The translations under genes and the position numbers were made by a program. This document shows positions 4,577 to 45,942 of a stretch of 64,000 bases of DNA, one piece after another. Where the stretch lies: the NCBI GenBank assembly GCA_964464475.1, contig CAYXGG010000005.1, forward strand, positions 33,143 through 97,142, written 5' to 3'. Numbering within the stretch: position 1 is the first letter of the stretch; each line of letters starts with the position of its first letter. Source of the stretch: an uncultured Planctomycetales bacterium. Lineage in GTDB: Bacteria > Omnitrophota > Gorgyraeia > Zapsychrales > JAHFFX01. Below the pieces are notes generated by a model that searched no databases, had not been told where the DNA came from, and was given only the letters and a program-made list of their open reading frames with translations.

Positions 4577-4771
4577 ATGGATAACTTAGCGAAAGCCCTT
4601 ACGTTATTATTTATCGCGGCTGGTTTCGCGATTTTTGTTTTAGTGTTACTGTTTAAGTTGGACGTGGTTTCCAAAAAAGCCGAAGCCGAAGTCCAAGAGT
4701 CATCTTCAGAAGCCATTTGGGAAGCGCATCTTTATCACCAGGCCATTGAGGGGGCCATGAAGGCCAAATAG
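4577..4771 (+). CDS. Small single-pass membrane protein (hypothetical)
   Basis: 64-aa ORF with one TM helix, LTLLFIAAGFAIFVLVLLF. No recognisable family. Confidence 0.3.
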   Translation: MDNLAKALTLLFIAAGFAIFVLVLLFKLDVVSKKAEAEVQESSSEAIWEAHLYHQAIEGAMKAK

Positions 4772-4799
4772 AGAGTTATAGTTCAAGAAAGGACGCACT

Positions 4800-5615
4800 A
4801 TGAAAAATACTGTTTCTTTGATTGTAATCGTTGCGGTGGCTATTGCCATCGGCGTGGCGTTGGCGGTTCAGCTAAATCAGGCACCCATGGTGGCCCAACA
4901 GCTGGGTATGATCATTGAATCGCAAGCGAAGATTGATCAAAAAATGACTTCTATTGAAGAGCAGCAGAAAAAAATGTTGGAAATTTTTGAAAGTGCCAAA
5001 AAGTCCGCTGAGCGCTTTGCTCAGCAAGGAGGAGCGGGTGGTCAGCAAGCCCAGCGACAAATGCCACCGCCGGAAGATTTGAATAAAGTTTATGATATTC
5101 CCGTTGGGGCTTCTTATATACGCGGTAACCCCGAAGCAAAAGTTACTATCGTTCAGTTTACGGATATCCAGTGCCCATTCTGTCAAAGATTTTACACACC
5201 CATTTTGGAAGTGCTTAAAGCTTATCCTAATGACGTAAAGTTTATCGTTAAGAATTTTCCATTGAGTTTTCATCCCAGCGCCCGACCGGCTGCGAAAGCC
5301 GCGTTGGCTGCCGGTGAGCAGGGTAAGTATTGGGAAATGATGGATTTGTTGTTAGAGGCGGGTCAGCAGTTGACCGATGAGAATTATAAGACATTGGCTG
5401 GGAAAATAGGGATCAGTGTGGAGCAATTTACCGCTGATTTAAAGAATAATGACGCGAAGTACGAAAAAATCATTAATGATGATTTGCAGCTTGGGTCTTC
5501 GGTGGATGTTCGTGGAACCCCCGCCTTCTATTTGAATGGCAAGAAAACCAACGCACGTGAATTTTCCATGTATAAACAGGAAATTGACGCAATTTTGGGG
5601 AAAGCCGGCCAATAA
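4800..5615 (+). CDS. DsbA-family thiol:disulfide oxidoreductase, membrane-anchored with a thioredoxin fold
   Basis: N-terminal TM/signal anchor. CPFC active-site motif in FTDIQCPFCQRF. cis-Pro region VRGTPAFYLNG. Confidence 0.75.
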   Translation: MKNTVSLIVIVAVAIAIGVALAVQLNQAPMVAQQLGMIIESQAKIDQKMTSIEEQQKKMLEIFESAKKSAERFAQQGGAGGQQAQRQMPPPEDLNKVYDIPVGASYIRGNPEAKVTIVQFTDIQCPFCQRFYTPILEVLKAYPNDVKFIVKNFPLSFHPSARPAAKAALAAGEQGKYWEMMDLLLEAGQQLTDENYKTLAGKIGISVEQFTADLKNNDAKYEKIINDDLQLGSSVDVRGTPAFYLNGKKTNAREFSMYKQEIDAILGKAGQ

Positions 5616-5711
5616 GAGGTGCTGGTAAATTTTAGTTGCATTTTTTCCGTCTCAAGAGTAGCATAAGGCCTTTGTTTCTTAGGGCAAAAGTAGTATTTAA
5701 GGGAGGTTAGC

Positions 5712-5984
5712 ATGACCAAAGTCGGCGGTACAACAAAAAAATATTACAAAGAGACCCGGGGCATGAAAGTCTCTGGCGGCCAGAAAGTCAAAGCAGGTAC
5801 GATGTTGACCCGAGAAGGTCATCGTTGGCAACCGGGCTTGAACGTAATCGGCCGCACGCACCTGACGGCGGGCTGTGACGGGGAAGTTTATTTTACTCGT
5901 AAACGCAGCAATTATCGTCGGGGTATTACCTTGATTAATGTCCGGCCTGAGGGCACGGATACTAAAGTTAAGAAAACCAAGTAA
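5712..5984 (+). CDS. rpmA: 50S ribosomal protein L27
   Basis: The segment AGTMLTREGHRWQPGLNVIGRTHLTAGCDGEVYF aligns with the L27 core ([28 protein letters not shown].F). GGGAGG RBS. No rplU is adjacent. Confidence 0.6.
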   Translation: MTKVGGTTKKYYKETRGMKVSGGQKVKAGTMLTREGHRWQPGLNVIGRTHLTAGCDGEVYFTRKRSNYRRGITLINVRPEGTDTKVKKTK

Positions 5985-5999
5985 GCATCCTACCTTTCC

Positions 6000-7832
6000 A
6001 TGTGCGGTATCATCGGATACGTTGGTCATAAGCAAGCGGTTCCGATTCTCATCGAGGGCCTGAAAAAGCTTGAGTACCGAGGATATGACTCCAGCGGCGT
6101 TGGAGTCATATCTTTAGGTCAGGCCAAGATCGATGTGCGCAAAATGGAAGGCAAAATTCATAATCTGCAGGAATTAATCAAAACTCATTCCTTGCCGGAC
6201 GCCACGATCGGCATTTCGCATACCCGCTGGGCCACTCACGGGGTTCCCAATCGCGTTAATTCCCATCCTCATGGAGACAGCCAAGGAAAGATTTTGGTTG
6301 TGCATAACGGCATTATTGAGAATTATCAAGAACTACGTTCGTATTTGGAGAATAAAGGGGTTAAGTTCCTTTCCCAAACGGACACAGAAGTTGTGCCGCA
6401 TTTGATTGCTGCTTTTTACCAGGGAGATTTCCTGGCTGCCGTCCTGAAAGCGATTCAGCAGCTAAAGGGAGCTTTTGCTTTGGGGATCATTCACCGTGAC
6501 CATCCGGATACATTGATCGCAGCGCGCGTGGGCTCACCGTTAATTATCGGTATTGGAAAGGATGAGAATTTTATCGCGTCGGATGTCCCGGCCATTTTGG
6601 ATAAAACCAAGAAGGTCATTTATCTTAAAGATAATCAGTTGGCCGTCATCTCTCGTAAAGCGGTTAAAGTCTATGCTTTTACGGGGAAGGCTGTGCCGGC
6701 TAAAGTAGACACGGTTTCCTTTACCGTCGGATCGGTTCACAAAGATGGTTATCCGCACTTCATGCTCAAAGAAATTCATGAGCAGCCCAAAGTTTTGAAT
6801 CACATGTTTTCCAACCGGATGAAGGGCAACAATATTCATCTTGAGGGTTTAAATCTTAAAGAAGCGGACATTAAGAAAATTAAGCAAATTATGGTTGTGG
6901 GTTGTGGAACGGCTTACCACGCGGGGATGGTCGGGAAGTATATTATTGAACGCTTGGCGCGCTTGCCGGTTTTGACGGATGTTTCCAGTGAGTTTCGTTA
7001 TCGCGATCCGATTATTGATAAATCTACGTTGATTTTGGCGATTAGTCAAAGCGGGGAGACCGCGGATACCCTGGCGGCGGTCAAAGAGGCCAAAGCGATG
7101 GGTGCCAAAGTCATCTCAATTTGTAATGTGATGGGATCATCGCTAGCGCGGGAATCACACGGCATTCTGTATACGCATGCGGGTCCGGAAATGGGCGTGG
7201 CTTCTACGAAAGCTTATACCGCTCAGTTGGCGATGTTATATTTACTGGCCATCAAATTAGCGGCGATGCGTAAGGTTTTTTCGCGAGGACATTTGCAGAA
7301 GATTATTAAGGATCTCAAACATATCCCGGCTTTGTATCAGCAAATTTTACATCATACGCACACCATTTCTAAGATTGGCCATGATAACGCGCATTTTGGG
7401 TGCTTCTTATTTTTGGGGCGGAATATTAATTATCCTTCTGCTCTCGAGGGGGCCTTGAAATTAAAAGAGATTTCGTATATTCCCGCAGAGGGTTATGCCG
7501 CTGGAGAAATGAAGCATGGACCAATCGCGCTCATTGATGAGTATCGAGCCGTGGTCTGTATCGCTCCGCAATCGGAAACTTATGAGAAGATGGTTTCCAA
7601 CATGCAAGAAATCAAATCCCGCAAAGGGAATATCATCGCTATTGCTACCGAAGGTGATGCTGAAATCAAGAATCATTCCCACCACGTTATTTATATTCCG
7701 AAGACTAACCCCATATTGACTCCATTGTTGGTGGCGTTGCCTTTACAATTGATCGCGTACGCCATTTCCACTAAACGTGGTTGTGATGTTGATCAACCTC
7801 GTAATTTAGCCAAATCGGTCACGGTTGAATAA
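6000..7832 (+). CDS. glmS: Glutamine--fructose-6-phosphate aminotransferase (isomerizing)
   Basis: MCGIIGYVGH Ntn-amidotransferase N-terminus. Two SIS domains. C-terminal ...GCDVDQPRNLAKSVTVE. 610 aa. Confidence 0.95.
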   Translation: MCGIIGYVGHKQAVPILIEGLKKLEYRGYDSSGVGVISLGQAKIDVRKMEGKIHNLQELIKTHSLPDATIGISHTRWATHGVPNRVNSHPHGDSQGKILVVHNGIIENYQELRSYLENKGVKFLSQTDTEVVPHLIAAFYQGDFLAAVLKAIQQLKGAFALGIIHRDHPDTLIAARVGSPLIIGIGKDENFIASDVPAILDKTKKVIYLKDNQLAVISRKAVKVYAFTGKAVPAKVDTVSFTVGSVHKDGYPHFMLKEIHEQPKVLNHMFSNRMKGNNIHLEGLNLKEADIKKIKQIMVVGCGTAYHAGMVGKYIIERLARLPVLTDVSSEFRYRDPIIDKSTLILAISQSGETADTLAAVKEAKAMGAKVISICNVMGSSLARESHGILYTHAGPEMGVASTKAYTAQLAMLYLLAIKLAAMRKVFSRGHLQKIIKDLKHIPALYQQILHHTHTISKIGHDNAHFGCFLFLGRNINYPSALEGALKLKEISYIPAEGYAAGEMKHGPIALIDEYRAVVCIAPQSETYEKMVSNMQEIKSRKGNIIAIATEGDAEIKNHSHHVIYIPKTNPILTPLLVALPLQLIAYAISTKRGCDVDQPRNLAKSVTVE

Positions 7833-8884: not shown

Positions 8885-9832
8885 TCAATAAGTTTTCTTG
8901 TCATTCGAGGGAGCAGTAAAGAGGGCTGCTTCGAGAGAAGCGCTTTTGGCGAGGAATCGACTGGATAGTGATTTTAGAGATAGTCGAATTCGATGTAAGC
9001 GCTGCTCACTGACAAAAAATACGTACCAGGTCAGCATCTGAGTTGAGAAGAAAATCAGTTTCTCCATAAAAAGAACGACTAAGCCCTGAAACGAAATTCC
9101 AAAGAAGATTCCCACCGGCCGCAAATACCGAATGCAGAACAAAATTGGGGCTGCTATTTCAAAAGTTAACGCCAAATATTGCAGTAAACTCCAAACCCCC
9201 AAGGGCAAAATGTCGAGGCATTGGGCGGCCAAATCAGTCATATAAAGGCCCTGCACGTGGCTCCATAAAACGTTGGGATTCTTTAGCCAGTCTCCCCGAA
9301 AAGCTTTCGCGTATCCCGCAAAAAAATAATGAAGAATTAAGGTCATTTGGAAAATTCTGACCGGCCAGATGGCTTGAGGGCGGGGTTCGGTGGAATGGAA
9401 TGACCAATAGGCATCATGTTTGGTAAAGAGCATTAACGTCATGGAGAGAGCAAAGAATTTATTGAGCGTGTAGGCGCTAAAAACATCCACATGATTGATG
9501 TATAAAACGCATGCCCAAAGCAAGGGGCAGGTGATTCGGGTGTAAAGTCCTAATGTCCAGGCTATGAGGCTTCCAAAGAAAAGAAAGCCGAAAAACGGCA
9601 GCCAGTCCGGCGGGAGGGCGGGCCATACTGGAATAGCAAGCAGTGCTTTTCCAGAAATGTGAAAGCTTTGTGTTGTCAGCCACTCCGTACTGTTCTGCCA
9701 CCAGACAATAAAGTAACTGAACATTGCCAAGCCGCTCAGAACTCGGTAGGTACACAATGCTATGGGGTCATGCAGTGCGAAAAAGAATTTGTATAGACGC
9801 CGCGATTGGTGGATAAAGAATTTTAAAATCAT
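8885..9832 (-). CDS. HTTM-domain-like polytopic membrane protein. This is the third HTTM paralogue in the block.
   Basis: N-terminus FFALHDPIALCTYRVLSGLAMFSYFIVWWQN resembles the HTTM start (L/F-DP-x-x-L-x-x-F/Y-R-x-x-x-G-x-x-M). About 8 TM segments. It overlaps the upstream gene by 4 nt. Confidence 0.45.
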   Translation of the reverse strand: MILKFFIHQSRRLYKFFFALHDPIALCTYRVLSGLAMFSYFIVWWQNSTEWLTTQSFHISGKALLAIPVWPALPPDWLPFFGFLFFGSLIAWTLGLYTRITCPLLWACVLYINHVDVFSAYTLNKFFALSMTLMLFTKHDAYWSFHSTEPRPQAIWPVRIFQMTLILHYFFAGYAKAFRGDWLKNPNVLWSHVQGLYMTDLAAQCLDILPLGVWSLLQYLALTFEIAAPILFCIRYLRPVGIFFGISFQGLVVLFMEKLIFFSTQMLTWYVFFVSEQRLHRIRLSLKSLSSRFLAKSASLEAALFTAPSNDKKTY

Positions 9833-10368
9833 GATTTTGGGGGAGTAAGGTAAGAAGAAATATACAAAACGTAGTATTGCTCAGGATTAAATTTTTCTAT
9901 CGGTTCATTTTCCCAATGCTTTTTGAAGCCATTCATTTTAAGATTCCGGTTTATTTGTAAGAATCGGACCGCGATGGGCTGTGGAGCGCGCGGATTCTTT
10001 TGCCGATAATTTTCTTTTAACCAGAGGGCCAGTTCAAAATGGGCGCGTTTATTGCCGCGATTGTTAAAAATCTCAAAATAGCGATTAAGACGATTGCGAT
10101 ATCCGAAAGGCCGCATTTTAAAATCTTCCTGTTGGTTATAGGTTATCCAGGGGCCATCAGGGAGGAATTGAAACTGGATAAAATACTGCGGCCAGGAACC
10201 AACTGAGTTGGTAAAAAGCGCAGAGCAGTTGTAGAGATTATTCAGGATAGGTGGCGAGTGAGGAAAAAATTTCCCGGTTAGTCCCATATAGGAGAAGGGA
10301 ATGACCCAAACAAATAAAAAAAGCGCGCAGCCAAAATAGTCCAGCTTGCTAGGCGAGGGCGTTTTCAT
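9829..10368 (-). CDS. Hypothetical N-terminally anchored protein, co-transcribed with the HTTM-like gene
   Basis: 179-aa ORF with an N-terminal TM helix, FGCALFLFVWVIPFSYMGL. No known motif. Translationally coupled to 8885-9832. Confidence 0.4.
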   Translation of the reverse strand: MKTPSPSKLDYFGCALFLFVWVIPFSYMGLTGKFFPHSPPILNNLYNCSALFTNSVGSWPQYFIQFQFLPDGPWITYNQQEDFKMRPFGYRNRLNRYFEIFNNRGNKRAHFELALWLKENYRQKNPRAPQPIAVRFLQINRNLKMNGFKKHWENEPIEKFNPEQYYVLYISSYLTPPKS

Positions 10369-10482
10369 GGAAAATTGTTAAAGGTCACTACGTGTCATCG
10401 ATTTTTGGTCGATAACCATAACTTTGGATGAGCGTAATCGGCGGTAATGATGGTTATAAAAATAATGAGCGGTGCTTATAAT

Positions 10483-11130
10483 CTATGGTCCGTAGGTAAT
10501 GAAATTCCAAGAGGCCGTTCCGGAGCCATCAGAAGTAAGAACTTTTCCTGAGGCTGGAGCGCCTCCACGAATACTGATTTGTCCATTTACGTCCAGTTTG
10601 GTGGCCGGATTCGTAGAGCCAATACCGACGTTACCGGTAGTAATTATCGTGTCGCCTCTTAATGTCGATGTCCCATTAACATCTAGTTTGGTGGCCGGGT
10701 TCGTAGATCCGATCCCAACGTTACCGGTGACAAGGGCATTGCTGCGAATATTGGCAGAGCCATTCACATCTAATTTGGCTCCAGGAGTAACGGTTCCAAT
10801 CGCCACATTCCAAGCCGTATTGTTAGGGTAAAGGTCGGTCCCGGATTGGGTCCAGGCGGAGGACAAGGTGCTGCCTGTCCAGGAGCTGGTGCTTCCACAA
10901 ACTTCTATCTGATAATTATCATTGCGAACATAAAATGTTCCCGGAGTGCAGGCGCCGGATTTTGCGGCTTGAGGAACCAGCAGCAATTCACTATAAGCGC
11001 CAATAGGGGAAGGATAATATGTCGTAAGCGATAATGTTTCTGCGGAAGCTTTAAAGCAATACCCTAAGGTGAAGACGATAACGCCGATAGTGATAATGTG
11101 GTTGGAAGAATTTCTCCTGAAGTGATCCAT
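10483..11130 (-). CDS. Secreted protein with tail-fibre-like beta-repeats (NVGIGSTNPATKLDVNG, three copies)
   Basis: Signal peptide MDHFRRNSSNHIITIGVIVFTLGYCFKASA from the ATG at 11130. Repeated G-N-V-G-I-G-S-T-N-P-x-x-K-L-D-V-N-G units as seen in phage tail-fibre and collar proteins. The longer ORF, open to 11265, overlaps the upstream gene. Confidence 0.55.
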   Translation of the reverse strand: MDHFRRNSSNHIITIGVIVFTLGYCFKASAETLSLTTYYPSPIGAYSELLLVPQAAKSGACTPGTFYVRNDNYQIEVCGSTSSWTGSTLSSAWTQSGTDLYPNNTAWNVAIGTVTPGAKLDVNGSANIRSNALVTGNVGIGSTNPATKLDVNGTSTLRGDTIITTGNVGIGSTNPATKLDVNGQISIRGGAPASGKVLTSDGSGTASWNFITYGP

Positions 11131-11255
11131 GAAAGGTTCAAAAGTATTTCTTAACATAGATTTAGTATATTTTATTTTTGCTGATAGAGCAACTAACCAG
11201 TTTAAAAATGAGAAATATTTGAAATAAGGCATTGCTTGTTGCTCCCCAAAAGGTT

Positions 11256-13670
11256 TTATAGGCATGGTGGATTGAGGGCTCCATAAGAATTACAGGCGCA
11301 TTCGGGTGGATCTGAGGGCCCTCCGGTGCAACTACCACTATTCCAACTGATGCATCCATAGACACAAGCAGGAAGTGCTTCGTCCACCTCATCGACTTCA
11401 TCAACGGGAGGTGTGACTGTTGGTGGCGTTACGGTCGGCGGCGATACCGTGGGTGGTGTGATCGTTGGCAACCCTTCATCTACCTCATCGACTTCATCAA
11501 CGGGAGGTGTGACTGTTGGTGGCGTTACGGTCGGCGGCGATACCGTGGGTGGTGTGACGGTAGGCGCTCCTTCGTCCACCTCGTCGACCTCATCAACGGG
11601 AGGTGTGACCGTTGGTGGCGTTACGGTCGGCGGCGATACCGTAGGTGGTGTGACGGTAGGCGCTCCTTCGTCCACCTCGTCGACCTCATCAACGGGAGGT
11701 GTGACCGTTGGTGGCGTTACGGTCGGCGGCGATACCGTAGGTGGTGTGACGGTAGGCGCTCCTTCGTCCACCTCATCAACGGCCACGCCGTTACATTCAA
11801 TACAGATTGAACAGACAGGTGTAATGCAGGCCCCGCCCATTTGGCACATAAATCCTCCCGGGTCAATAGAGCAAAAAGGGTTGGGAGAACCGTCACTAAT
11901 GACATTGTTATAAGTTTTGCAGCCTCCTTGAGAACTGCAGTCTAAGGAGGAAGGGCATCCTGTTCCGCAACTCGCGCTAGGTGATGGTGCCGCAACGGTT
12001 GGGGGCGTGACTGTTGGGGGCGTGGCTGTTGGGGGTGTCACGGTCGGTGGTGTTACTGTTGGAGGTGGAGTTACGGTTGGGGGGGTCACTGTGGGAAAGC
12101 AATTACCGCAATCTTCAGGTGCAGTATTGCAATCCTCGCCTCCTCCACAACATCCATCTCCCGGTGTTGAACTCGAGCAATCCGCTGGACAATTACAAAC
12201 ATTTTCGCCAACTTGACAGGTTCCATTAGGACAAGAGGTTCCTGATTGACAGCAATTGGATACAGGATAAAACCAAGTTCCTCCGATACAAATGGCCGAA
12301 CAGGCGGAGGTTCCATTAGAGGTAGTACCACTGGGACAACCGAGTACTTGAGGAAAACACATATCTGCCCCGCACCCAGGCATTTGAGCGGAATCCGCAG
12401 TACAGTCTTGTAGACAGTTTGAACAATCTTCCCCCGCACCACAAGTACCGTCGCCACAGTTTACTCCGCAGGCCGGCATGGGGCAGGCCTGGCTTGAGGG
12501 GCCGGCGCAATCGGTGCCTCCGCAGGCGGGCGTGGGATTGGTGCACGTACGTGTCTGAATACCGTCCTGGCCACATAATCCCGTACAAGTACTCCAAGCG
12601 CTCCAGCCTCCATTAACCGCAGGGGTACAGCAGTCTCCTGGACAGCTGACGGCATTTTCCGAAGCGCAGCAATAACCGTCGCCGCAGTTAGGGCAGCCAC
12701 TCACGCAAGTAACACTAGGATTGAAAGGATTGGGCGGAGAACAGGTTCCAGAGCATCCAAATAAAGCGCAAGAGACACAGGAACAGGTCGAATAATCCAA
12801 AAATGATCCATTCGGACAAGAATTTGTACAATAACAGGATGGACCAAAAGGCGTATCATTACACCCGGTTTGGGGTGCCGGACACGTATGTAAGGTGCAG
12901 GTTGTTGAGGGACAAAGAGTTGGCGGACAGTTTGCGAGATTACAAACAGTTATGTTGTTGCCCGGGCAATCGGTCGGCGCATTAGTGCAGTTTTCGCATG
13001 GAGTGTCACAAAAACCATCACCAACATTTAGTGAGCAAGAGCAATCTGCTGGGCAGGTGGCTACTGTTTCCCCCTGAGCGGTATCGCAGAACCCATCGTT
13101 ACATTGGGTCCCACAGTCTTGCGGGCACGTCGCTGAACTTTCAGTCGCTGAACAAAAACCATCACCGCAAGGACTACTACAATCTCCGGGGCAGGAAGCT
13201 GCTGTTTCGCTTCCGTTGCAAACACCATCACCACAGCACATGGCATTTTCCAGATTGACTCTAAGTTCGTTGAGATGGATCGCTTTTACGCGCGTGGAAC
13301 TGGCAGTGATGTTGCTGTCGGTATAGCTGGGATTAGGTCGACCCAGAGGAGCATAAAAATTGTTAATTGCCGTGCGAAGTTCGTCGATATGAATTTTGCG
13401 GATTTGGGTAACGCCGGCAGTGATGGTTTCAGACCAGGGATAAGCGCTTCCTCCGCACGCCGTTCTTTTGGCATCAATTTGAGCCCGAAGCTCAACGATG
13501 TGTGAGGCCCGAATGCTGGTTGACGTGGTAATATTCTCGCTCCAGGATATGGTGTAGCTGGCGGACTGAGCGTATGAATTTTGATTTAACGACAAAAAGA
13601 AGAAAAGGGTGATGGAAAAGAATAGCGTGGTTAAGTTTTTAAGAATCGGCAGCTGTCGGCAATAATCCAT
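11256..13670 (-). CDS. Giant secreted Cys-rich modular protein. It contains a thrombospondin type-1 repeat, GDGxC...CPxDC cysteine repeats, Pro/Thr linkers and C-terminal Asp/Glu-rich tandem repeats.
   Basis: 804 aa. Signal peptide MDYCRQLPILKNLTTLFFSITLFFFLSLNQNSYAQS. WSAWSTCTGLCGQDGIQTRTCT is a TSP1 consensus. More than 100 cysteines. Four copies of VDEVDEVDEG-APTVTPPTVSPPTVTPPTVTPP at the C-terminus. Confidence 0.75.
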   Translation of the reverse strand: MDYCRQLPILKNLTTLFFSITLFFFLSLNQNSYAQSASYTISWSENITTSTSIRASHIVELRAQIDAKRTACGGSAYPWSETITAGVTQIRKIHIDELRTAINNFYAPLGRPNPSYTDSNITASSTRVKAIHLNELRVNLENAMCCGDGVCNGSETAASCPGDCSSPCGDGFCSATESSATCPQDCGTQCNDGFCDTAQGETVATCPADCSCSLNVGDGFCDTPCENCTNAPTDCPGNNITVCNLANCPPTLCPSTTCTLHTCPAPQTGCNDTPFGPSCYCTNSCPNGSFLDYSTCSCVSCALFGCSGTCSPPNPFNPSVTCVSGCPNCGDGYCCASENAVSCPGDCCTPAVNGGWSAWSTCTGLCGQDGIQTRTCTNPTPACGGTDCAGPSSQACPMPACGVNCGDGTCGAGEDCSNCLQDCTADSAQMPGCGADMCFPQVLGCPSGTTSNGTSACSAICIGGTWFYPVSNCCQSGTSCPNGTCQVGENVCNCPADCSSSTPGDGCCGGGEDCNTAPEDCGNCFPTVTPPTVTPPPTVTPPTVTPPTATPPTVTPPTVAAPSPSASCGTGCPSSLDCSSQGGCKTYNNVISDGSPNPFCSIDPGGFMCQMGGACITPVCSICIECNGVAVDEVDEGAPTVTPPTVSPPTVTPPTVTPPVDEVDEVDEGAPTVTPPTVSPPTVTPPTVTPPVDEVDEVDEGAPTVTPPTVSPPTVTPPTVTPPVDEVDEVDEGLPTITPPTVSPPTVTPPTVTPPVDEVDEVDEALPACVYGCISWNSGSCTGGPSDPPECACNSYGALNPPCL
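11380..11790. repeat. 96-bp tandem repeat array of about 4.3 copies inside the giant Cys-rich gene
   Basis: The string 'cctcatcgacttcatcaacgggaggtgtgac...' recurs at 11387, 11483, 11579 and about 11675, with a 96-bp period. It encodes the VDEVDEVDEG...TPP protein repeats. Confidence 0.85.
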
Positions 13671-13819
13671 TCAGCCCCCCCAGGCGAGATGATTAGTGTT
13701 GCCAAATTTGAGTATAGATAACTTAATCCAATGGTTCAATTAAGAATTTATTTTTTGAGCAAGCGTTTTCAATCGTTTGAATTCTTTGTTTTGAATAAAT
13801 TGTATGCTTATCGGTGCCC

Positions 13820-16762
13820 TCATTGATGAAAATCAATAGTGGAGAAAATTTGAATACGGGTTTGCGCGTCCTTCCAGCAATCGTTGGGCAGCTTAGCTTT
13901 TTCGCTACACAACCGAGATAGAAAAGTTTCTTTATCCGGGATTTTAGACCAAACACTCGGTAAAAATATTCCTCGGTTTTTTCCTTTGCTGACAATAACG
14001 CCATGCCGGCGCGGTTGAATGATGGCCACATCAGAAATAACGCGAGGCGGGGTCAGAACGGAAATCTTGATTTTGCTTTTTTGAAATTCTTCTTTGGTTA
14101 AAGGAGGAAAGCGAGGGTCTTGGAAGGCGGATTCCCGGGCCATGACGGTTATTTCTTGCCAGAGGCTGCGGGTGGGGGTGGTGCTCCCTCGGCATCCGCG
14201 CAGACGACCTTCTAATTCAATCGTGACAAAAGCGCTGGCCGGCAGGTTTAAATAAGCGCTATGAGACAATGCGGCTGGGTCCAGCGGTTGATTGTCGAAT
14301 TGTTCGGTAATGGATTGGGCGGCTTGCTTAAGGAGCATTTGTTGTAATTCCGGATCATGCAGATAGCTTACGGGTTCGGGGCTCGGCGCGTCCTCTTTGA
14401 GGAAAGCGAGGGCCGCGTAGCCAACAACGCGGTTAATGTCTCCGGATGGGGCGTCTCCGGAGTTCGCGTAAGCCAGCGGGGTGACGTTAGTCGCTCCCAG
14501 TAGTTTGGCCGCGATAATTCCTGTTTGGACCGCGCCTTGGCCGCAAAGCGGGGTTTTAAGTTTATTCGCAAATTGTTTTTTTAAGAACGTGACGGTTTGA
14601 TTGACCAGACCTGCATCCATTTGTTGAATGGCGGATAGGGTGATGGGATCAATGCGCAATGCGGAGGCTTGATCCGGATAGTGAGCTAGGTCTGTTGAGA
14701 TAATAATGAGCGCGTTGTGCTTCTTGGCGACTTGGGCGATGGATTCCGCCATGAGCCGGCAAGTTTTAACATCGTCGGTACTGATCAGTAGTGGAACAAT
14801 TTTGAAATTGCTGAAACGGCGTTGCAGAAAAGGGAGTTGGGCTTCTAGCGAATGTTCTTGTTGGTGAGGCAGTGCTGAATCAACGAAAAGGGGGTTGCTG
14901 GTCAACAGTTCCTGGACGACGTCTTCGTTAACTGGGACTTTTCCTAAAGGGGTTTCAAAAAAACCCTTGGCCCAAAGCGCGCCGCCTTTAACGGGTACGC
15001 GATGAGCGGGTCCAATGAGGATAAAGGTGAGCGTGTCATTGTTCAGTTGGTGATAGCCATTGGCTGCTACTCCTCCTGAATATTGGTAAGCCGCGTGGGG
15101 AACCAGCAGCGCGACGATACTTCCGGGGAGCGTTTTTGAGGTCGACGCGTTGAGCAGTTGATCGACGGTGGAAGAAAGCGTTGCGGGGTCTCCGGGATAA
15201 AATTTATCAGCCACGGCGGCCGCTCGGATCCCGCCGCTGGGCACGATGGCTTTTGAGCTTGCAGAAGAATTGGGCTGAGAGGTTTTTTGTTTATGAGTCT
15301 TAGTGTTCTTGACGCAGGAATGTTTTAGCATTACGCGCTTGGTGTATTCCGCGACTTGTCCAGGCGGGGGGGTTTTCTTGGCCATAAAAATTAATTCCAG
15401 CGATTGCAGTCGCTGAGGTCCGGAATGGGTCGCATTCCAAGTGCGGCACAAATACTCTCCGTAATAGGGCCAGTAGTTTTTGTTTTTTCCGTAAGTATGG
15501 TTAAACAGGTAACGTCGCCAACGTTCGCTGGGGAACATCTGAGATGCGGATGGCTTAGTCCAGTCTAATTTCTTTCCGTCGCGGAATAAATCAACGGTGT
15601 TTCCATCGGCCAATTTGCCGGGAACCAGGAACCAGCCATTCGTCATGGCTGGCGGCGCGAACATGCGCCACGCCTGATTGATGTGTAAAAGATCGCAAAT
15701 GTTTTTTAATGGAGCCGGCATGCGATAGGTTTTTTGGGTAATTCGTTCGTAATTATAAAGCAGTACGCAGACCAGTGTCAGCGCCGCGGTCAAATTGGCC
15801 GCGGGGGAAGCGTGAATAGTCATGAACTTTCTGGGTAGACGTTCATAAATATGGCTGCCGGTTATGGCTGTGGTCACACGATCCCAGAGTTTAAGGCCCC
15901 CTATTTTGTCCCAGAATTCTTTGGGTAGAAAGAGAAGCAGGGCGGTGCTGCTAACCCAGGGAAACAACATTAAATGCAGGCAAAGATAAAAGCCCAAGTG
16001 CATCAATAGGAATCCAGCCACCAAAGGCGTCCGAATGTAGGCAGTTGCCCAGGGTAAAAAGAGAAGAATCGGCGCGATTAATTCAAACCAAAGCGTGGCG
16101 TGAGTGATAAAAGACAGCAAGTCAGGAAATTGTAAAAGCGTTAGCGCGAAATTTTTGGCGTAATTATCAATATTAAGTGCGTAATAAACCGCCGTGCCGT
16201 CTTGCCACATGGGCAGAGGCCACTTGTGAAGGGCGGCCATGAAATAGCCAACGGCGTTTTGAATCAACATGGCCGCCGTTCCGACGCTGAATATTTGTAT
16301 CGGAATTTCGTTTTTGTTTAAAGCGCGACTGCTATCAACAGAGAATTTGGCGCCCAACGGCAAAAATAGGCTCCAAAAAAGTAAGAGACGAAAATAATCG
16401 TCTCCGCCGCCCATAATCATCGGATTGCGACGGTGTAATGAAATCAGCAAGAGGTAGGAGAAGAAGGTCATCCAGCGAGTTTGGTACCCAAACATCAAAC
16501 CTAGCGCGCACAGTGCCTGCAAGCCCAGCAGTACGTATTGAACTTGCGGTGTTCCGTTCAACAGGTGAATTGATAGGGCCCAGGGACTGGGAGGTTGTTG
16601 AATGACAGCCATGCGGGGTAAGAGTCCTTCATCAGAGAAGTAAAGCGATACGTCCGGTAGATAATTAATCACATCGATTAAAATAATGAGTCCGATGCCG
16701 ATTCTAAAAATAGCTAGCGCGCGCGTATCAATGCCGAATAAATTTCTGAGTTTATTCATCAA
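13820..16762 (-). CDS. Tri-domain fusion. An N-terminal HTTM domain (vitamin-K-dependent gamma-carboxylase-like, with a VKGC-like C-terminal soluble region) is followed by a Memo-like domain (AmmeMemoRadiSam system protein B) and an AMMECR1 domain (AmmeMemoRadiSam system protein A).
   Basis: HTTM: FRIGIGLIILIDVINYLPDVSLYFSD...HRRNPMIMGGGDDYFRLLLFW. Memo: ALLVPHAAYQYSGGVAANGY, FILIGPAHR, QEHSLEAQLPFL, IISTDLAHYP, LCGQGAVQ, VVGYAALAF. AMMECR1: EGRLRGCRGS...QDPRFPPLTKEEF...HGVIVSKGKNRGIFLPSVW. 980 aa. Confidence 0.8.
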   Translation of the reverse strand: MMNKLRNLFGIDTRALAIFRIGIGLIILIDVINYLPDVSLYFSDEGLLPRMAVIQQPPSPWALSIHLLNGTPQVQYVLLGLQALCALGLMFGYQTRWMTFFSYLLLISLHRRNPMIMGGGDDYFRLLLFWSLFLPLGAKFSVDSSRALNKNEIPIQIFSVGTAAMLIQNAVGYFMAALHKWPLPMWQDGTAVYYALNIDNYAKNFALTLLQFPDLLSFITHATLWFELIAPILLFLPWATAYIRTPLVAGFLLMHLGFYLCLHLMLFPWVSSTALLLFLPKEFWDKIGGLKLWDRVTTAITGSHIYERLPRKFMTIHASPAANLTAALTLVCVLLYNYERITQKTYRMPAPLKNICDLLHINQAWRMFAPPAMTNGWFLVPGKLADGNTVDLFRDGKKLDWTKPSASQMFPSERWRRYLFNHTYGKNKNYWPYYGEYLCRTWNATHSGPQRLQSLELIFMAKKTPPPGQVAEYTKRVMLKHSCVKNTKTHKQKTSQPNSSASSKAIVPSGGIRAAAVADKFYPGDPATLSSTVDQLLNASTSKTLPGSIVALLVPHAAYQYSGGVAANGYHQLNNDTLTFILIGPAHRVPVKGGALWAKGFFETPLGKVPVNEDVVQELLTSNPLFVDSALPHQQEHSLEAQLPFLQRRFSNFKIVPLLISTDDVKTCRLMAESIAQVAKKHNALIIISTDLAHYPDQASALRIDPITLSAIQQMDAGLVNQTVTFLKKQFANKLKTPLCGQGAVQTGIIAAKLLGATNVTPLAYANSGDAPSGDINRVVGYAALAFLKEDAPSPEPVSYLHDPELQQMLLKQAAQSITEQFDNQPLDPAALSHSAYLNLPASAFVTIELEGRLRGCRGSTTPTRSLWQEITVMARESAFQDPRFPPLTKEEFQKSKIKISVLTPPRVISDVAIIQPRRHGVIVSKGKNRGIFLPSVWSKIPDKETFLSRLCSEKAKLPNDCWKDAQTRIQIFSTIDFHQ

Positions 16763-16766
16763 GGGT

Positions 16767-18257
16767 TTAATTCCTTTTATTTTTTTTGGTGCTGGTCGAT
16801 TCTGTGCACGATTGACTCCATAAGATTTTCTTTTGAGTGGAAGAGTCTTGTCCCGGCAGACGCGTCACTCTTTTGATGGTGACAATCTGCAGTGAAGCGA
16901 TTTGTTCGGGCGACGTATGCTTAGAATTCCAACTGCGGCATAAATAGCTCGCATAATGTTTCCACGCGCGTTCTTCATCTCGAATAAGAAAATTCATTTG
17001 AAATTTACGCCAACGTTCATTCTTGAACAGCTTGGCGGCCTCGGGTTTTTCCCAAATAAGCGAAGTGCCAGGTCGGGATGCGTCGACTTGAGTGCCGTTG
17101 TTGAGCGTGGCGGGCACCACCACCCAGCCGCTGATTTTGGAAGGATTAGGAGCAAACATTTTCCAGGCTTGGTCCAAATATAAGAATGTGCTGGCCGTGT
17201 TTAGGGCGGGGGAAAATTTTATTGTTTCTGGAACCAGTCGGGATAGGGTTAAGCCAAAGACAGCGATTAAACAGAGTGCCGCCGTCCCGTTTAGCAACGG
17301 ACTTAACTGGTATTTTGCTGAGTCGGAATTCAAGGCGGTGGGAGATTGGGATAATGCGGAGAACATCGGCAGTATTTTCTGGACTAAATGTGTTTCCCAA
17401 AACCAGGTCGGTAAAAAAAGCGTCATCGCGACAATGCTGATGGCGGGAAAAAGTTCCAAATAGAGGAGAGAATGAAAGCTCATTTGTAACACAATAAAGA
17501 TGAGGGCGGTGAACGTCCGAATTTTTTCATGCCACCAAGGGAGAAAAAGAAGAAAAGGTCCCCACAGTTCAAAATAAAGGATTGCGCGCGTCAGAACTGA
17601 CATGAGGTCGGGGTAATGTAGCAGCCATTCCGCTTGTGGGCGCGCGTAAAGCTCGACGTTGAACGCATAGTATAGGGCGCTTCCGTCATGCCAGGTTTCG
17701 CCCTTCCATTTATGGAGCGCTGTAAAAATATAAACGATAGCAGTTTGTAGCAGCGCGGCGGTTGTCGCCCAGTTAAAAATGCGGGAGGGCCGCTCTATGT
17801 TGTATTTGGACCGTAAGTTATCGAGAGAGAGCCGAATTCCCAACGGTAAAAAAAGACTCCAGAAAAGCATCATCCTTAAATAGTTATCCGCTCCTCCCAG
17901 AATGAGTGGGTTACGTCGCTGGAGAGAGGCTAATAGGATCCAGGATAAGAACGTCATCAGGCCGGTGCGATATCCGACCAGGAGCCCGATGGCGCACAAA
18001 GCTTGCAATAAAAATAGAATGCTTTGGACTTCCACTGTTCCGTTTAGCAGATGCCAGGACATGATTCCCGTGGAAGAGTTTCGCTCCAGAAGGGCTGCAC
18101 GTGGGAGCACTCCGTTATCGGTGTAAAACGCGGTAATGTCTCCGGCGCGAATGGCAAGGTCCCACAAAAGTACGATCGCTAGGCCACATCGAAATAGCAC
18201 TAAAGATCGAACATCAATACCGAATACCCTAGCGAAAAGAGAGGGCTTGTTTTCCAT
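16767..18257 (-). CDS. HTTM-domain protein (vitamin-K-dependent gamma-carboxylase-like). Paralogue of the N-terminal half of 13820-16762.
   Basis: FRCGLAIVLLWDLAIRAGDITAFYTDNGVLP...QRRNPLILGGADNYLRMMLFWSLFLPLG. The C-terminal region shares QAWKMFAP...GW.VVP...ERWRKF...YLCRSWN with the neighbouring gene. The genes are 4 nt apart, consistent with an operon. Confidence 0.8.
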   Translation of the reverse strand: MENKPSLFARVFGIDVRSLVLFRCGLAIVLLWDLAIRAGDITAFYTDNGVLPRAALLERNSSTGIMSWHLLNGTVEVQSILFLLQALCAIGLLVGYRTGLMTFLSWILLASLQRRNPLILGGADNYLRMMLFWSLFLPLGIRLSLDNLRSKYNIERPSRIFNWATTAALLQTAIVYIFTALHKWKGETWHDGSALYYAFNVELYARPQAEWLLHYPDLMSVLTRAILYFELWGPFLLFLPWWHEKIRTFTALIFIVLQMSFHSLLYLELFPAISIVAMTLFLPTWFWETHLVQKILPMFSALSQSPTALNSDSAKYQLSPLLNGTAALCLIAVFGLTLSRLVPETIKFSPALNTASTFLYLDQAWKMFAPNPSKISGWVVVPATLNNGTQVDASRPGTSLIWEKPEAAKLFKNERWRKFQMNFLIRDEERAWKHYASYLCRSWNSKHTSPEQIASLQIVTIKRVTRLPGQDSSTQKKILWSQSCTESTSTKKNKRN

Positions 18258-18481: not shown

Positions 18482-19139
<658 letters not shown>

Positions 19140-32100: not shown

Positions 32101-33729
32101 TTAATTCAGAAAATTACGACGTTTCAGAATTACCGTGCCATGATTCCACGCCCAGCCGGGTTCGTTTTGCCAGTCTCCGAATTGCGCGACGGGCGCGAAG
32201 TTGTCTTCCAAATATTTCCCAATCAACGGACAGTAGGTCTTTCCTAGGACTCCCAGTCCCGGTTCTTGGGTCGCGTTCATGCGGCTGGAGGCGAGGACCC
32301 AATTCACTTTATTCTTTTCTAATTCCGAGATAACGCTACGTTCTTGTTCCGGAGGGATTTTGATATGATCAAAAAAGATCAACTGACGGGTGGGGGTTTT
32401 TTTGCCGGTCAAATAGTAATAGAGGCAGTCGTAGGGCAGAGCGAAAAATAATTCATCACGGGTGAGATTCTTTTGTAAATAATCTGTGGTCAGGTTGACC
32501 GTCTGGGCCCAGCTGGGATGGTTGGTGGTGTAAATCTGCAGCCGAGAGTTTGTAAGGAATTGCTGCGGATTTCTTATTTTGGCTAATTCGTTTAAATTGG
32601 CCTGGTGGTTGTTGATGACGACGGACAAGGCACCTACCAAAAGGGCTCCAGCAATCCAGCGGGGTAAATTAATGACTGCAAAAGCGATTAACGAAACGAT
32701 CAAGGTTAATTGAAAGGGTTTGATCCAAAAATGGCGATAGAAGACGCCACTAACCAGGAATTCGTGAAAGTTTAAGATAATGAGAAGGACCAGCCCTCCT
32801 AAAAAAAGACCGAAGGTGCGTTTGGTTGTCGATGGAGTTTTGATGGTGGTTAATTGATAGATGCTCTGAATGATTGCCAACACTAACAGGACGGCCGTGA
32901 TTTTGTTGGTCAAGGTAAAGAGAATGTTTTGTTTGGTGAAGTCCGCGAACATGGACAGCGCTTGCCAAGGGGTGACGCTGTAGGGCTGGTCGCCCTTGAC
33001 GTAAGGGAAGCATTGACGGATTTCCATGATGCTTAAGCCGCGCACGCACCAAATGTAAATAGCCGCAGTGCAAGCTAATAAAGCGAAGCCGCCGATAAAA
33101 AGCGGGGGCAACCATTCTTTAATGGGGCGGCGGTGAACGAGGTTGGTAACGATGACCATGGCCCCGAAGCCCGCGAGGGTCGCCAGGCCGATGTTGATTT
33201 TAACGAGCCCAAGAAGAAAAATCGCTCCTAATCCGGCCCAAATGAAGGCCCCACGCTGCGTGAGGATATGTTGGGTCAGGCAATAAAGGGTGGCCGCCAA
33301 CAACGTGATCCCGGCGGCATTGTTATATGTATAAAAGAAATCGGGATTAAAAGCCCAAAACCATAAGCTGCCAATAAGACCCAGCCACGGAGAGCGCAGT
33401 GCGGTCAGCGTTAGGAAAATAAATATTCCGGAACAAAGATTAAAAAACATCTTCACCAGTAAAACATTTTTGATGCTAATTCCCAGAACACTTAACACCG
33501 GCGCGTAAATGTAAGGCATCAAGGGGCCGTAGACCCACCAATAATCAAGGTAGGGGCGCTGGCCGTGCGCGGTTTGTTCAAAAGCGTAAAGGTCCCGTCC
33601 ATGGTCACCTTGAGAAAGCATCGCTTGGAAATCTAAAAAAGGGGACAAGATAATGGCGCCGCCAACGAGTGAAGCCGTTAGGCACAGCCAAAACCAAAAT
33701 TGTGGGAGGTGATCGTTAGGTTTGTTCAA
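32101..33729 (-). CDS. Large polytopic membrane protein, putatively a GT-C-fold glycosyltransferase, with a C-terminal periplasmic domain
   Basis: 542 aa. About 12 predicted TM helices followed by a soluble C-terminal domain of about 150 aa. No catalytic motif can be called by eye. Confidence 0.45.
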   Translation of the reverse strand: MNKPNDHLPQFWFWLCLTASLVGGAIILSPFLDFQAMLSQGDHGRDLYAFEQTAHGQRPYLDYWWVYGPLMPYIYAPVLSVLGISIKNVLLVKMFFNLCSGIFIFLTLTALRSPWLGLIGSLWFWAFNPDFFYTYNNAAGITLLAATLYCLTQHILTQRGAFIWAGLGAIFLLGLVKINIGLATLAGFGAMVIVTNLVHRRPIKEWLPPLFIGGFALLACTAAIYIWCVRGLSIMEIRQCFPYVKGDQPYSVTPWQALSMFADFTKQNILFTLTNKITAVLLVLAIIQSIYQLTTIKTPSTTKRTFGLFLGGLVLLIILNFHEFLVSGVFYRHFWIKPFQLTLIVSLIAFAVINLPRWIAGALLVGALSVVINNHQANLNELAKIRNPQQFLTNSRLQIYTTNHPSWAQTVNLTTDYLQKNLTRDELFFALPYDCLYYYLTGKKTPTRQLIFFDHIKIPPEQERSVISELEKNKVNWVLASSRMNATQEPGLGVLGKTYCPLIGKYLEDNFAPVAQFGDWQNEPGWAWNHGTVILKRRNFLN

Positions 33730-33860: not shown

Positions 33861-35546
33861 TTGATCATGGGCCCACGATTTAAATATTTCCTGACTTTCT
33901 TTTTTATTTTGCTGCTAAACCTTTCCGTGTATTTTCCTGCTTTTTTTCAAATGGCCCGGGCCGATCAGCTGGTGTATTTGACGGAAGTGGCTGACCAATA
34001 CGAATTTGGTGAATTATTTCAGAACACCTATTCTTATAACCGCACGCGTCATTATAACCAGGGCGACGAATTGGGGTTTCGGCCGATATTGTTCGCGTTA
34101 TTGGCCTTTCAAAAAAGTTATTTTGGTTACAATTTTGTGCTTTGGCAGCTGGTCGGGTTTGTGTTGCACGCGCTGCTGTTGGCGCAGCTGCTGCGCTTGC
34201 TTAATTTTATCCGTTGGGATTTCCTGGGGGCTTTACTGGTGGCCAACTTTTCCGTGTTGACCATTGCTTCCGAAATGGTCAGCTGGCACCACATTCACGC
34301 GTACATTTTATTTTTGGTGTTAGTGCTGGAGGCGTTGTTGCAAGTGGCGCGATTCTTCCATCCGCCTACGCCTGAAACCACGGCTTTAGCCGTGGGGCTC
34401 CATGATCCGGTCCGGGACGAAAAAAGATTGGGCCTAGCGCTTATTTGGTTGACGTTGGCCTGTTACATTCAGGAATTTGGAGTTATTACGTGCGTGGTGC
34501 TGGGGATTTTTACGCTGTATTGGGGGAAGAAAAATAAATCCCCTACTGCTTGGCGGGACGCTCTAATTTTTGTGGTGCCGGTCGCGAGCTACGTTATCAT
34601 CAGCCTAGCGGACTATTGCTTGCGGAATATTGTTCCTCGTACTTTAGGTGCGATTGACTTAAAGTTCATGCTGATGAACTTGCCGGTCATTATGTTTACC
34701 TATCTACGCGGCGCGTTATTGCCTTGCTGGACCACCATTTATCCCGAAGAGCGCGCGAGCATTGATCCTTTTTCGTTGACGGTCACCTGGCAGAGCATCC
34801 AATGGGACAATTGGCTGCATCAGTTAAACCTGTTACTGGTCGTACTGTTTGCTTTAGGGTTACTGTCAGTGATCGTGAATTTCTTTTGGCGGCGGTTCCG
34901 TCCGGTGGTGCAGACAGATGTTGCTTCAAATCATGACTCGCGGTTTTGGTCCATCTTTTCCTGGCTGTGTTTGGCTCTAGCCGGGCTTTACATGGCGTTG
35001 GTCATGATGGGGCGATTAACGACGCAGGAGATGGATTATATTTATTTGAGTTTGTATCAATTTTACATGGTCGGGGCCTTTCTGGTTGTTGCCATCTATG
35101 CCGAGCTGGCCGCTCATCATCCACGTTTATTTTCGGGACGGTCGTTTTTGCGATGGGGTGTCATTTTGTTTTTGGTCGTATCTATTCTGGTCAACGCCGT
35201 GCAGACCTATACCCAAAATCGATTACGTATGAAACTCGAATCCGGAGCGCTGGCCATGGTGAAGACACTCGAACGATTTGTGCAGGAGCATCGTCGAGAA
35301 ACAGATTTTTCATTCTGGATGGTGGGGGCTGAACATGATTTAATAACGGGTATGTTTGAAGGGCATTCGTGGGACGGGAATCTTTGGGTGGGTTCGGTTT
35401 CTAACTTTTTATTCCGTCCGTACGTCCGGACGGAAAACGCCAAGTATTACTTAGTGTATTCCACTAAAGAGGGATTGGTGGTGTTTCGGGATTTAACCGC
35501 AGCAGAATACTTCTTAGAACAACTGCAAGAGAGCACGCATGACTGA
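33861..35546 (+). CDS. Polytopic membrane protein, paralogue A of a tandem pair (GT-C-like, function unknown)
   Basis: 561 aa. Conserved N-terminus with its neighbour: YFPAFFQMARADQLVYLTEVADQYEFGELFQNTYSYNRTRHYNQGDELGFRP. Confidence 0.6.
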   Translation: MIMGPRFKYFLTFFFILLLNLSVYFPAFFQMARADQLVYLTEVADQYEFGELFQNTYSYNRTRHYNQGDELGFRPILFALLAFQKSYFGYNFVLWQLVGFVLHALLLAQLLRLLNFIRWDFLGALLVANFSVLTIASEMVSWHHIHAYILFLVLVLEALLQVARFFHPPTPETTALAVGLHDPVRDEKRLGLALIWLTLACYIQEFGVITCVVLGIFTLYWGKKNKSPTAWRDALIFVVPVASYVIISLADYCLRNIVPRTLGAIDLKFMLMNLPVIMFTYLRGALLPCWTTIYPEERASIDPFSLTVTWQSIQWDNWLHQLNLLLVVLFALGLLSVIVNFFWRRFRPVVQTDVASNHDSRFWSIFSWLCLALAGLYMALVMMGRLTTQEMDYIYLSLYQFYMVGAFLVVAIYAELAAHHPRLFSGRSFLRWGVILFLVVSILVNAVQTYTQNRLRMKLESGALAMVKTLERFVQEHRRETDFSFWMVGAEHDLITGMFEGHSWDGNLWVGSVSNFLFRPYVRTENAKYYLVYSTKEGLVVFRDLTAAEYFLEQLQESTHD

Positions 35547-45844: not shown

Positions 45845-45942
45845 ATAGTACAAAATTGCGGCGACAGACTGAAGAACGAATATTATGATGAAGGTCTTCA
45901 ATTTGTTCAGTCGTGTCGCTATGTTCAATCCATGAGGCAATC

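Follow-up and report, generated by a model that had tools for sequence, protein, structure and literature searches.

A translationally coupled HTTM protein and membrane-anchored partner in an Omnitrophota genome: a candidate two-subunit GGCX-like enzyme

Background

The membrane core of human gamma-glutamyl carboxylase (GGCX), the vitamin K-dependent carboxylase, is an HTTM domain in which roles have been assigned to individual residues: K218 is the catalytic base, W223 stacks on it, D263 is the acidic residue adjoining it, F286 stacks on the naphthoquinone ring and F299 traps CO2, while the substrate glutamate is held by N159/H160 and by Y395 of a luminal loop, and N290 hydrogen-bonds the quinol (PMC12647623). 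Related cores occur in several other settings. MloH of Streptomyces is a fused HTTM carboxylase responsible for aspartyl carboxylation in malonomycin biosynthesis, and an AlphaFold 3 complex of a DUF5819 protein with a separate HTTM protein resembles whole GGCX and has been described as a split GGCX: the DUF5819 helix replaces a GGCX transmembrane (TM) helix, the DUF5819 domain sits at the site of the clamp domain, and its Leu59/Phe60 make contact with the predicted vitamin K pocket, which is lined by Lys189/Trp195 of the HTTM protein (bioRxiv 10.64898/2026.08.19.745780). In sdpABC and yitPOM, a partner gene precedes the HTTM gene, and SdpA and SdpB are both needed for maturation of the secreted protein (PMC6818787). 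Giant viruses, finally, encode an HTTM-only 'vitamin K epoxidase', a truncated gamma-carboxylase that occurs with desaturase modules (bioRxiv 10.64898/2026.03.26.714578). Here we analyze two adjacent genes at positions 8885-10368 (minus strand) of a 64,000-nucleotide stretch of DNA from an uncultured bacterium of the Omnitrophota (contig CAYXGG010000005.1 of assembly GCA_964464475.1; the whole stretch is called the window below), one encoding a 315-amino acid (aa) HTTM protein and the other a 179-aa anchored partner.

We propose, with moderate confidence, that 8885-10368 is a self-contained, translationally coupled module, most likely coding for a two-subunit, quinol-dependent GGCX-like enzyme at the outer face of the cytoplasmic membrane. 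The likeliest class of substrate would be a secreted or surface protein.

Results

A GGCX-like membrane core

A first-pass annotation of the sequence had taken the product of the ATG-initiated open reading frame (ORF) at 8885-9832 (minus strand, like all features of the pair) for a polytopic HTTM-like protein, judging from its opening segment, and had staked this call on a hidden Markov model (HMM) hit. Such a hit is found: Pfam HTTM (PF05090) matches the 315-aa protein with 34.1 bits, above the gathering score of 27.7 bits (E 2.9e-8), over residues 21-273 (9014-9772) and profile positions 4-255 of 259. In the alignment with human GGCX, the opening segment, HDPIALCTYRVLSGLAMF (residues 21-38), falls on the first HTTM-domain helix, TDPASLAVFRFLFGFLMVL. 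The protein is indeed polytopic, with an all-helical AlphaFold model and several hydrophobic segments by hydropathy, and it terminates about 40 residues past the HTTM domain.

A word-based search with this protein yields six relatives at 36-49% identity. When the family profile is compared with all PDB sequences, GGCX chains only are matched (E 7e-5, query residues 7-270 to GGCX 48-309). The same fold emerges from structure: in a Foldseek search of the PDB with the AlphaFold model (predicted local distance difference test, pLDDT, 75.9), the top 16 matches are all GGCX, with E from 2.3e-6 to 4e-3 and a TM-score (query) of 0.61-0.63 over about 290 aligned columns, and the first non-GGCX match follows at E 1.8. 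The NCBIfam SdpB-family model, TIGR04033, gives no match to the 315-aa protein even at E <= 1. The protein is a member of the HTTM family, GGCX-like in its core; it is neither a GGCX orthologue nor, by the curated model, a member of the SdpB family.

Equivalences with GGCX residues were read off the HMM alignment, positions were checked in the window sequence, and invariance was counted over nine HTTM homologues from distinct loci. The catalytic base corresponds to K176 (codon 9305-9307), where 'aGwaK...GdW' is aligned with 'AGVKK-LDADW', and D263 corresponds to E225 (codon 9158-9160). W182, F248 and F262 are the counterparts of W223, F286 and the CO2-trapping F299, respectively. All five residues are invariant (9/9). 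The substitution of glutamate for D263 is a conservative change, and the D263E mutant of GGCX keeps 25% of its activity (cited in bioRxiv 10.64898/2026.03.26.714578). The region of GGCX comprising Y395/M401 is not part of the 315-aa protein, and other substrate-side residues are not kept either (see Discussion). To judge from the alignment, the quinol-oxygenation core is intact and the Gla-type (gamma-carboxyglutamate) substrate site is not.

A conserved partner family

The partner ORF, at 9829-10368, encodes 179 aa with a single hydrophobic segment, at residues 12-30. In the AlphaFold model (mean pLDDT 83.4), a TM helix at residues 8-31 (10276-10347), carrying the near-invariant W21 and P24, is followed by a juxtamembrane helix at residues 40-53, ending in a near-invariant Leu-Phe pair, L51-F52 (codons 10213-10218), and then by an alpha/beta domain of four strands and two helices. 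The N-terminal helix is modeled with pLDDT 86-94. This layout is that of a single-pass membrane protein, probably oriented N-in/C-out.

No Pfam or NCBIfam model matches the 179-aa protein at E <= 1, and a word-indexed database search with this protein alone found nothing. On contigs with HTTM homologues, the corresponding upstream position is taken by a gene of about 180 aa (31% identity for the L001 copy, E 8e-22), and alignment of these syntenic genes led to the recovery of 13 relatives. A profile built from 12 sequences was then run exhaustively against 1.84 billion representatives and retrieved 375 clusters (defined at 50% identity) at E <= 1e-3, 307 of them at E <= 1e-10. In an alignment of 114 members, W21, P24, L51, F52, W74, F88, G89, R93 and R135 are each at least 90% conserved, and none of the 114 matches any Pfam or NCBIfam model consistently. 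Scanning with the partner alignment returned one locus in genomes and three in metagenomes, and none came from the viral contigs scanned. The partner model has no significant structural match in the PDB or in BFVD; the top BFVD match, a Barrevirus 'desaturase' (E 0.13, TM-score 0.26), was treated as noise, and a weak 36-residue match of the partner profile to GnsA among PDB sequences (E 0.063) was rejected as chance. By these comparisons, the partner belongs to a conserved family outside the curated ones.

The public record of this protein (P0019) is shorter. It starts at an internal ATG (M85, 10114-10116), preceded at 8 nucleotides (nt) by AGGAAG, and its 95 aa are 100% identical to the query over 53% of the 179 residues. 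Residues 1-84, with five of the nine highly conserved positions (W21, P24, L51, F52 and W74), are conserved across the family, and full-length homologues are called on other contigs, as is the complete 179-aa protein on an ENA contig (P0168). This conservation and the full-length calls elsewhere show that the true product has 179 aa and that the 95-aa record is an annotation error.

Strict pairing in variable neighborhoods

The stop codon of the partner gene and the start codon of the HTTM gene share the tetranucleotide ATGA (9829-9832). Together with the single hydrophobic segment of the partner, this bears out the first-pass view that the HTTM gene is translationally coupled to an N-anchored companion. 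The pairing extends to every other locus examined: the partner gene lies directly upstream of the HTTM gene in 11 of 11 (the window being the twelfth), and in eight of nine measured pairs the two genes overlap, by 1-23 nt. These loci are L001, L002, L003, L004 (an Omnitrophica WOR_2 metagenome-assembled genome; same contig as L009), L005, L006/L007, L008, L010/L011, L012, L013 and the ENA contig. The HTTM gene is confirmed by profile or Pfam in nine of the eleven (10/12 with the window) and is size-matched but unscanned in the other two; the downstream gene encodes 293 aa in the ENA contig and is cut by the contig end in L013. In L005 (10005-12035), a GC-rich contig, the HTTM homologue downstream of partner P0018 appears broken, being split over two reading frames; this is either a frameshift or pseudogene, or an error of assembly.

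Flanking genes differ between loci and include phosphoesterases and Mla genes, AddAB, a methyltransferase, a toxin-antitoxin pair and others; therefore the conserved unit is the pair itself. Some neighbors recur. A single-domain response regulator is found in L001, L004 and L008, and Cys-rich secreted proteins of the DUF4215/CGDG type, or fiber-like ones, adjoin the pair in the same orientation in the window, L002, L004 and L010 (4/12 loci). The third recurring type is that of membrane enzymes of lipid or glycan metabolism: a PMT_2 (GT-C) glycosyltransferase gene (4769-6253) overlaps the HTTM stop codon in L004, a position occupied in the ENA contig by a 492-aa gene, and directly upstream of the pair in L012 is a gene of the FA_hydroxylase/sterol-desaturase family (1057-1929). 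MlaEFD genes lie downstream of the pair in L001. We also observed upstream of the pair in L010 (141-521) a Peptidase_S74 (endosialidase chaperone) protein and a Cys-containing PKD/Ig protein, in a position equivalent to that of the 260-aa gene of the window described below.

No partner-HTTM fusion was observed among the long members of the partner family, whose fusions involve leucine-rich repeats (LRRs) or cyclophilin. Four long members carry C-terminal LRRs. In P0069, a signal peptide, a cyclophilin domain, a TM helix and a short basic loop precede the partner helix and the partner domain, from which order we infer a periplasmic partner domain and a cytoplasmic N-terminus. As protein-binding or protein-folding modules, both kinds of fusion point to protein handling.

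A tblastn search of plasmids with the HTTM protein had a sole match, in Hymenobacter plasmid NZ_CP141187.1 (3198-4663). There, a gap of 8 nt separates an unannotated 168-aa ORF with a hydrophobic N-terminus from the annotated HTTM gene that follows it, and an acyl-CoA desaturase gene is nearby. This ORF is not similar to the 179-aa family, and HTTM genes seem to have small upstream partners of diverse kinds.

Comparison with described HTTM systems

The pair shares with GGCX the fold of the membrane core and the equivalents of K218, W223, D263 (as Glu), F286 and F299. It lacks the luminal, propeptide-binding clamp and the C-terminal domain, and the enzyme would be split between two genes. The host differs as well: the window encodes an Omp85 protein, hence the cell is diderm and has a periplasm, which the active site of such a bacterial enzyme would face.

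The closest parallel to the pair is that of DUF5819 and its HTTM protein. In both systems the genes are adjacent and an N-terminal TM helix precedes a domain of about 150 aa; a Leu-Phe pair follows the helix, Leu59/Phe60 there and L51-F52, some 20 residues past the helix, here; and the HTTM proteins share a Lys-x5-Trp spacing (Lys189/Trp195 versus K176/W182). However, DUF5819 and the present partner family have no sequence match (0/114), and the published HTTM example has a C-terminal DCC1-like domain that the 315-aa protein lacks. The first-pass annotation had drawn a comparison with sdpB, and aptly: the order of small partner then HTTM gene is also that of SdpA/SdpB (YitP/YitO) in Bacillus subtilis. 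The curated SdpA and SdpB models match neither the partner family nor the 315-aa protein, toxin precursor and immunity genes were not recognized beside the pair, and the host here is diderm. In architecture and context, then, the partner resembles SdpA and DUF5819, but it fails every sequence test of membership.

Two other systems differ from the pair in the partner component. In MloH, compared here by its description, the partner-equivalent region is fused after the HTTM domain, whereas the present partner is a separate upstream gene. The viral epoxidases resemble the 315-aa protein in consisting of an HTTM core alone, about 300 aa long, with the catalytic Lys, with Glu at the D263 position and with a hydrophobic residue at that of N290. 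The FA_hydroxylase-family gene beside the pair in L012 echoes the viral desaturase modules, although in one of 12 loci only. No small partner has been reported for the viral proteins, and no VKOR gene was seen beside the present pair.

The block upstream of the pair

Four more minus-strand genes lie directly upstream of the pair. Two encode secreted repeat proteins (10483-13670), which are candidate substrates on the basis of context. The 260-aa protein (10483-11265) bears fiber-stalk repeats, GNVGIGSTNPATKLDVNG. The 804-aa protein (11256-13670) has three 'IRAxHIxELR' units and at least six Cys-rich CGDGxC...E...CPxDC repeats, and a 96-bp tandem repeat in its gene (11378-11777; 4.2 copies, 95% identical) encodes PTVTPP...VDEVDEVDE units. 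These acidic VDEVDEVDE clusters adjoin three HTTM genes.

The other two genes (13820-18257) are HTTM-like and of the fused type. The 496-aa ORF (16767-18257) and the first 500 or so residues of the 980-aa ORF (13820-16762) are paralogues, 40% identical. Both proteins fail the Pfam HTTM model PF05090. When compared by hhalign with the 315-aa family, they align over 256 columns with a probability of 93.8% (E 1.8e-7) and the catalytic Lys (K183) in register. On this alignment we consider them genuine remote HTTM folds, and the first-pass count of three HTTM-fold genes in the window stands. They also match the SdpB-family model TIGR04033 below threshold, with 31.9 bits for the 980-aa protein (E 1e-7) and 23.8 bits for the 496-aa protein (E 3e-5) against a cut-off of 178.4. 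Past the HTTM domain, both have a TM helix (residues 321-342 or so), an invariant Met-Phe about 22 residues further and a domain of about 150 aa, which is the fused layout of GGCX and MloH. A derivation of the partner from this C-terminal region, as a split-off domain, was considered and set aside: hhalign comparisons with three profiles are not significant (E 0.23-0.48), returning the same helix-strand stretch each time.

The 980-aa protein continues into two further domains, Memo (AmmeMemoRadiSam protein B; residues 513-787, 245.6 bits) and AMMECR1 (protein A; residues 809-977, 162.8 bits), both above their cut-offs. No radical SAM gene matching AmmeMemoRadiSam was found in the window, where the only radical SAM gene is KamA-like. 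A post-HTTM domain on the periplasmic side, as GGCX-type enzymes would have it, would also put Memo and AMMECR1 in the periplasm.

Other features of the window

Just upstream of a PyrR-like ORF at 18597, a perfect 15-bp hairpin followed by a T-run (18547-18579, plus strand) looks like a pyr attenuator, with no Rfam match at the gathering threshold. Three polytopic membrane proteins of about 550 aa, at 32101-33729 (minus strand), 33861-35546 (plus strand) and 35539-37221 (plus strand), have no Pfam match; the last two have similar N-termini, sharing the motif RADQLVYLTEVA, and look like tandem paralogues. The plus-strand gene at 45913-48774 encodes a 953-aa protein in which a Peptidase_M1 domain is combined with a C-terminal barrel of the Omp85 superfamily, an unusual pairing that indicates a diderm envelope.

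Discussion

A model for the pair

In the enzyme we propose, the two products would form a heterodimer. The HTTM subunit would bind reduced menaquinone, with K176 and E225 starting quinol oxygenation. The partner would insert N-in/C-out and pack its helix on the HTTM bundle at the place held in GGCX by the extra post-HTTM helix, L51-F52 may close the quinone pocket as a lid, by analogy with Leu59/Phe60 of DUF5819, and the periplasmic alpha/beta domain, in which F88, G89, R93 and R135 are conserved, would dock the substrate. As in GGCX and MloH, reduced menaquinone and O2 would generate a strong alkoxide base. This base would take a proton from a substrate C-H, and the resulting carbanion would be captured by CO2 held on F262, or otherwise resolved.

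Several points weigh against this model. The chemistry of GGCX needs O2 and a reduced naphthoquinone. Genes for men functions, VKOR or oxidases were not seen in the window. The Omnitrophica lineage, to which the L004 genome belongs, is largely anaerobic. The partner has no detectable sequence similarity to any region of GGCX, and its profile finds no GGCX in a search of the PDB; nor do the Pfam and NCBIfam models of SdpA and DUF5819 (which we take to be PF17418, PF19136 and TIGR04034) match any of the 114 family members, even at E <= 10. On the substrate side, N159/H160 of GGCX align to T122/L123 of the 315-aa protein, two positions before an invariant N124-K125, and N290 aligns to V252, which is V, I or L across the family. 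Because N159/H160 are not kept, the substrate is unlikely to be a glutamate of the classical Gla type, and with N290 lost as well, glutamate carboxylation by the pair is doubtful. The neighborhoods give mixed hints, of protein in some loci and of lipid or glycan in others. The fold, residues, pairing and orientation are shown by the results above; the complex between partner and HTTM protein, its cofactor, its chemistry and its substrate are what we infer from them.

Alternative readings

The lipid- and glycan-type neighbors suggest a different role, in which the pair would act on a membrane lipid, a quinone or a lipid-linked glycan and the HTTM core would be a quinol epoxidase driving another membrane reaction, as proposed for the giant-virus modules. 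The FA_hydroxylase/sterol-desaturase-family gene next to the pair in L012, the glycosyltransferase gene of L004 with the similarly placed 492-aa gene of the ENA contig, and MlaEFD in L001 would all fit such a role, and so would the absence of N290 and of the Glu-binding residues, a loss shared with the viral enzymes, in which D263 is likewise replaced by Glu. However, each lipid-type neighbor is found in one or two loci only, the LRR and cyclophilin fusions of the partner speak for protein handling, and the invariant F262, equivalent to the CO2-trapping F299, would be superfluous in an enzyme restricted to epoxidation. We regard this role as rather unlikely. Still less probable is that the pair matures a secreted peptide toxin, as a system of the SdpA/SdpB type. 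The pair has the gene order and architecture of such a system, a small partner followed by an HTTM protein, and the other two HTTM-like proteins of the window weakly resemble the SdpB family, but the 315-aa protein itself does not, no member of the partner family matches the SdpA model, and no SdpC-like precursor or SdpI/SdpR-type immunity gene was recognized beside the pair, either in the window or among the annotated neighbors at the other loci.

The pair could also be reduced or enlarged. It would be reduced if the 179-aa ORF were over-called and only the 95-aa product of M85, or none, were made, leaving the HTTM protein to act alone; the NCBI record annotates 95 aa only, and the AGGAAG ahead of M85 contrasts with the lack of a Shine-Dalgarno-like sequence ahead of the ATG at 10368. 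Given at least 90% conservation of five residues upstream of M85 among 114 sequences, full-length homologues called in other contigs and a confidently modeled N-terminal helix, we consider this highly improbable. At the other extreme, the first-pass annotation had seen all of 8885-18257 as one functional island, and had suggested comparing its composition with the flanks for signs of horizontal acquisition. The block does look operon-like: six genes on one strand are separated by 4, 149, -10, 114 and -4 nt and flanked by plus-strand housekeeping genes, no terminator-like sites were found in the gaps, and the layout is compatible with co-transcription. The three HTTM enzymes, two fused and one split, could then modify the two repeat proteins, for instance at VDEVDEVDE or at the Glu of CGDGxC...E...CPxDC, which would be compatible with our explanation of the pair; the catalytic Lys is kept in all three, and similar Cys-rich or fiber-like neighbors lie in the same orientation in L002, L004 and L010. 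On the other side, promoter-like matches are at chance level, a gene of the 496/980 type is absent from every other pair locus whose DNA was read, and 8 of 12 loci have no Cys-rich neighbor. Composition gives the island no further support. In codon usage, five of the six block genes stand apart from the window (z -2.6 to -3.9; the partner gene has z 0.13), but this is confounded by strand, since the reference genes are almost all on the plus strand and the remaining two minus-strand genes stand apart as well (z -1.6 and -1.8). The strand-symmetric tetranucleotide signature is normal for the pair (0.287 versus 0.256 +/- 0.033) and for the 980+496 segment; the repeat-rich 260+804 segment is the only atypical part of the block. 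Horizontal acquisition was thus rejected for lack of evidence, and the island idea is not sustained as it was put: its sole remaining link is the recurring adjacency to Cys-rich secreted proteins (4/12 loci), which hints at a connection. We hold a single operon-like unit of this kind to be doubtful, at perhaps one chance in a few.

Implications

To our knowledge, bacterial HTTM proteins have no assigned function apart from SdpB, which acts in toxin maturation, and MloH, which carboxylates aspartyl residues. The concept of a split GGCX-like enzyme with a small anchored subunit pre-exists, and has so far been argued from one AlphaFold 3 prediction, that of DUF5819; the partner family, its coupling to the HTTM gene and the residue map are concrete additions to it. 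The locus also provides invariant residues open to mutation and the correction of a truncated public gene call.

A bolder extension, to which we give little credence at this stage, is that the partner family marks widespread two-piece, quinone-driven enzymes whose periplasmic targets are secreted proteins or proteins of the bacterial surface, modified after translation, for instance through carboxylation of acidic residues, as a bacterial counterpart of Gla formation. Here such an enzyme would work with its two fused relatives, one of them joined to Memo and AMMECR1, on the Cys-rich and fiber-like proteins encoded between them.

Whatever the substrate, a second partner family of 375 clusters, unrelated in sequence to the first but with the same architecture and strict coupling, suggests that an HTTM core with an anchored accessory subunit is a general design. 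Since it brings together one split and two fused forms, and has candidate secreted substrates beside them, this region would be a convenient system for the study of bacterial HTTM function.

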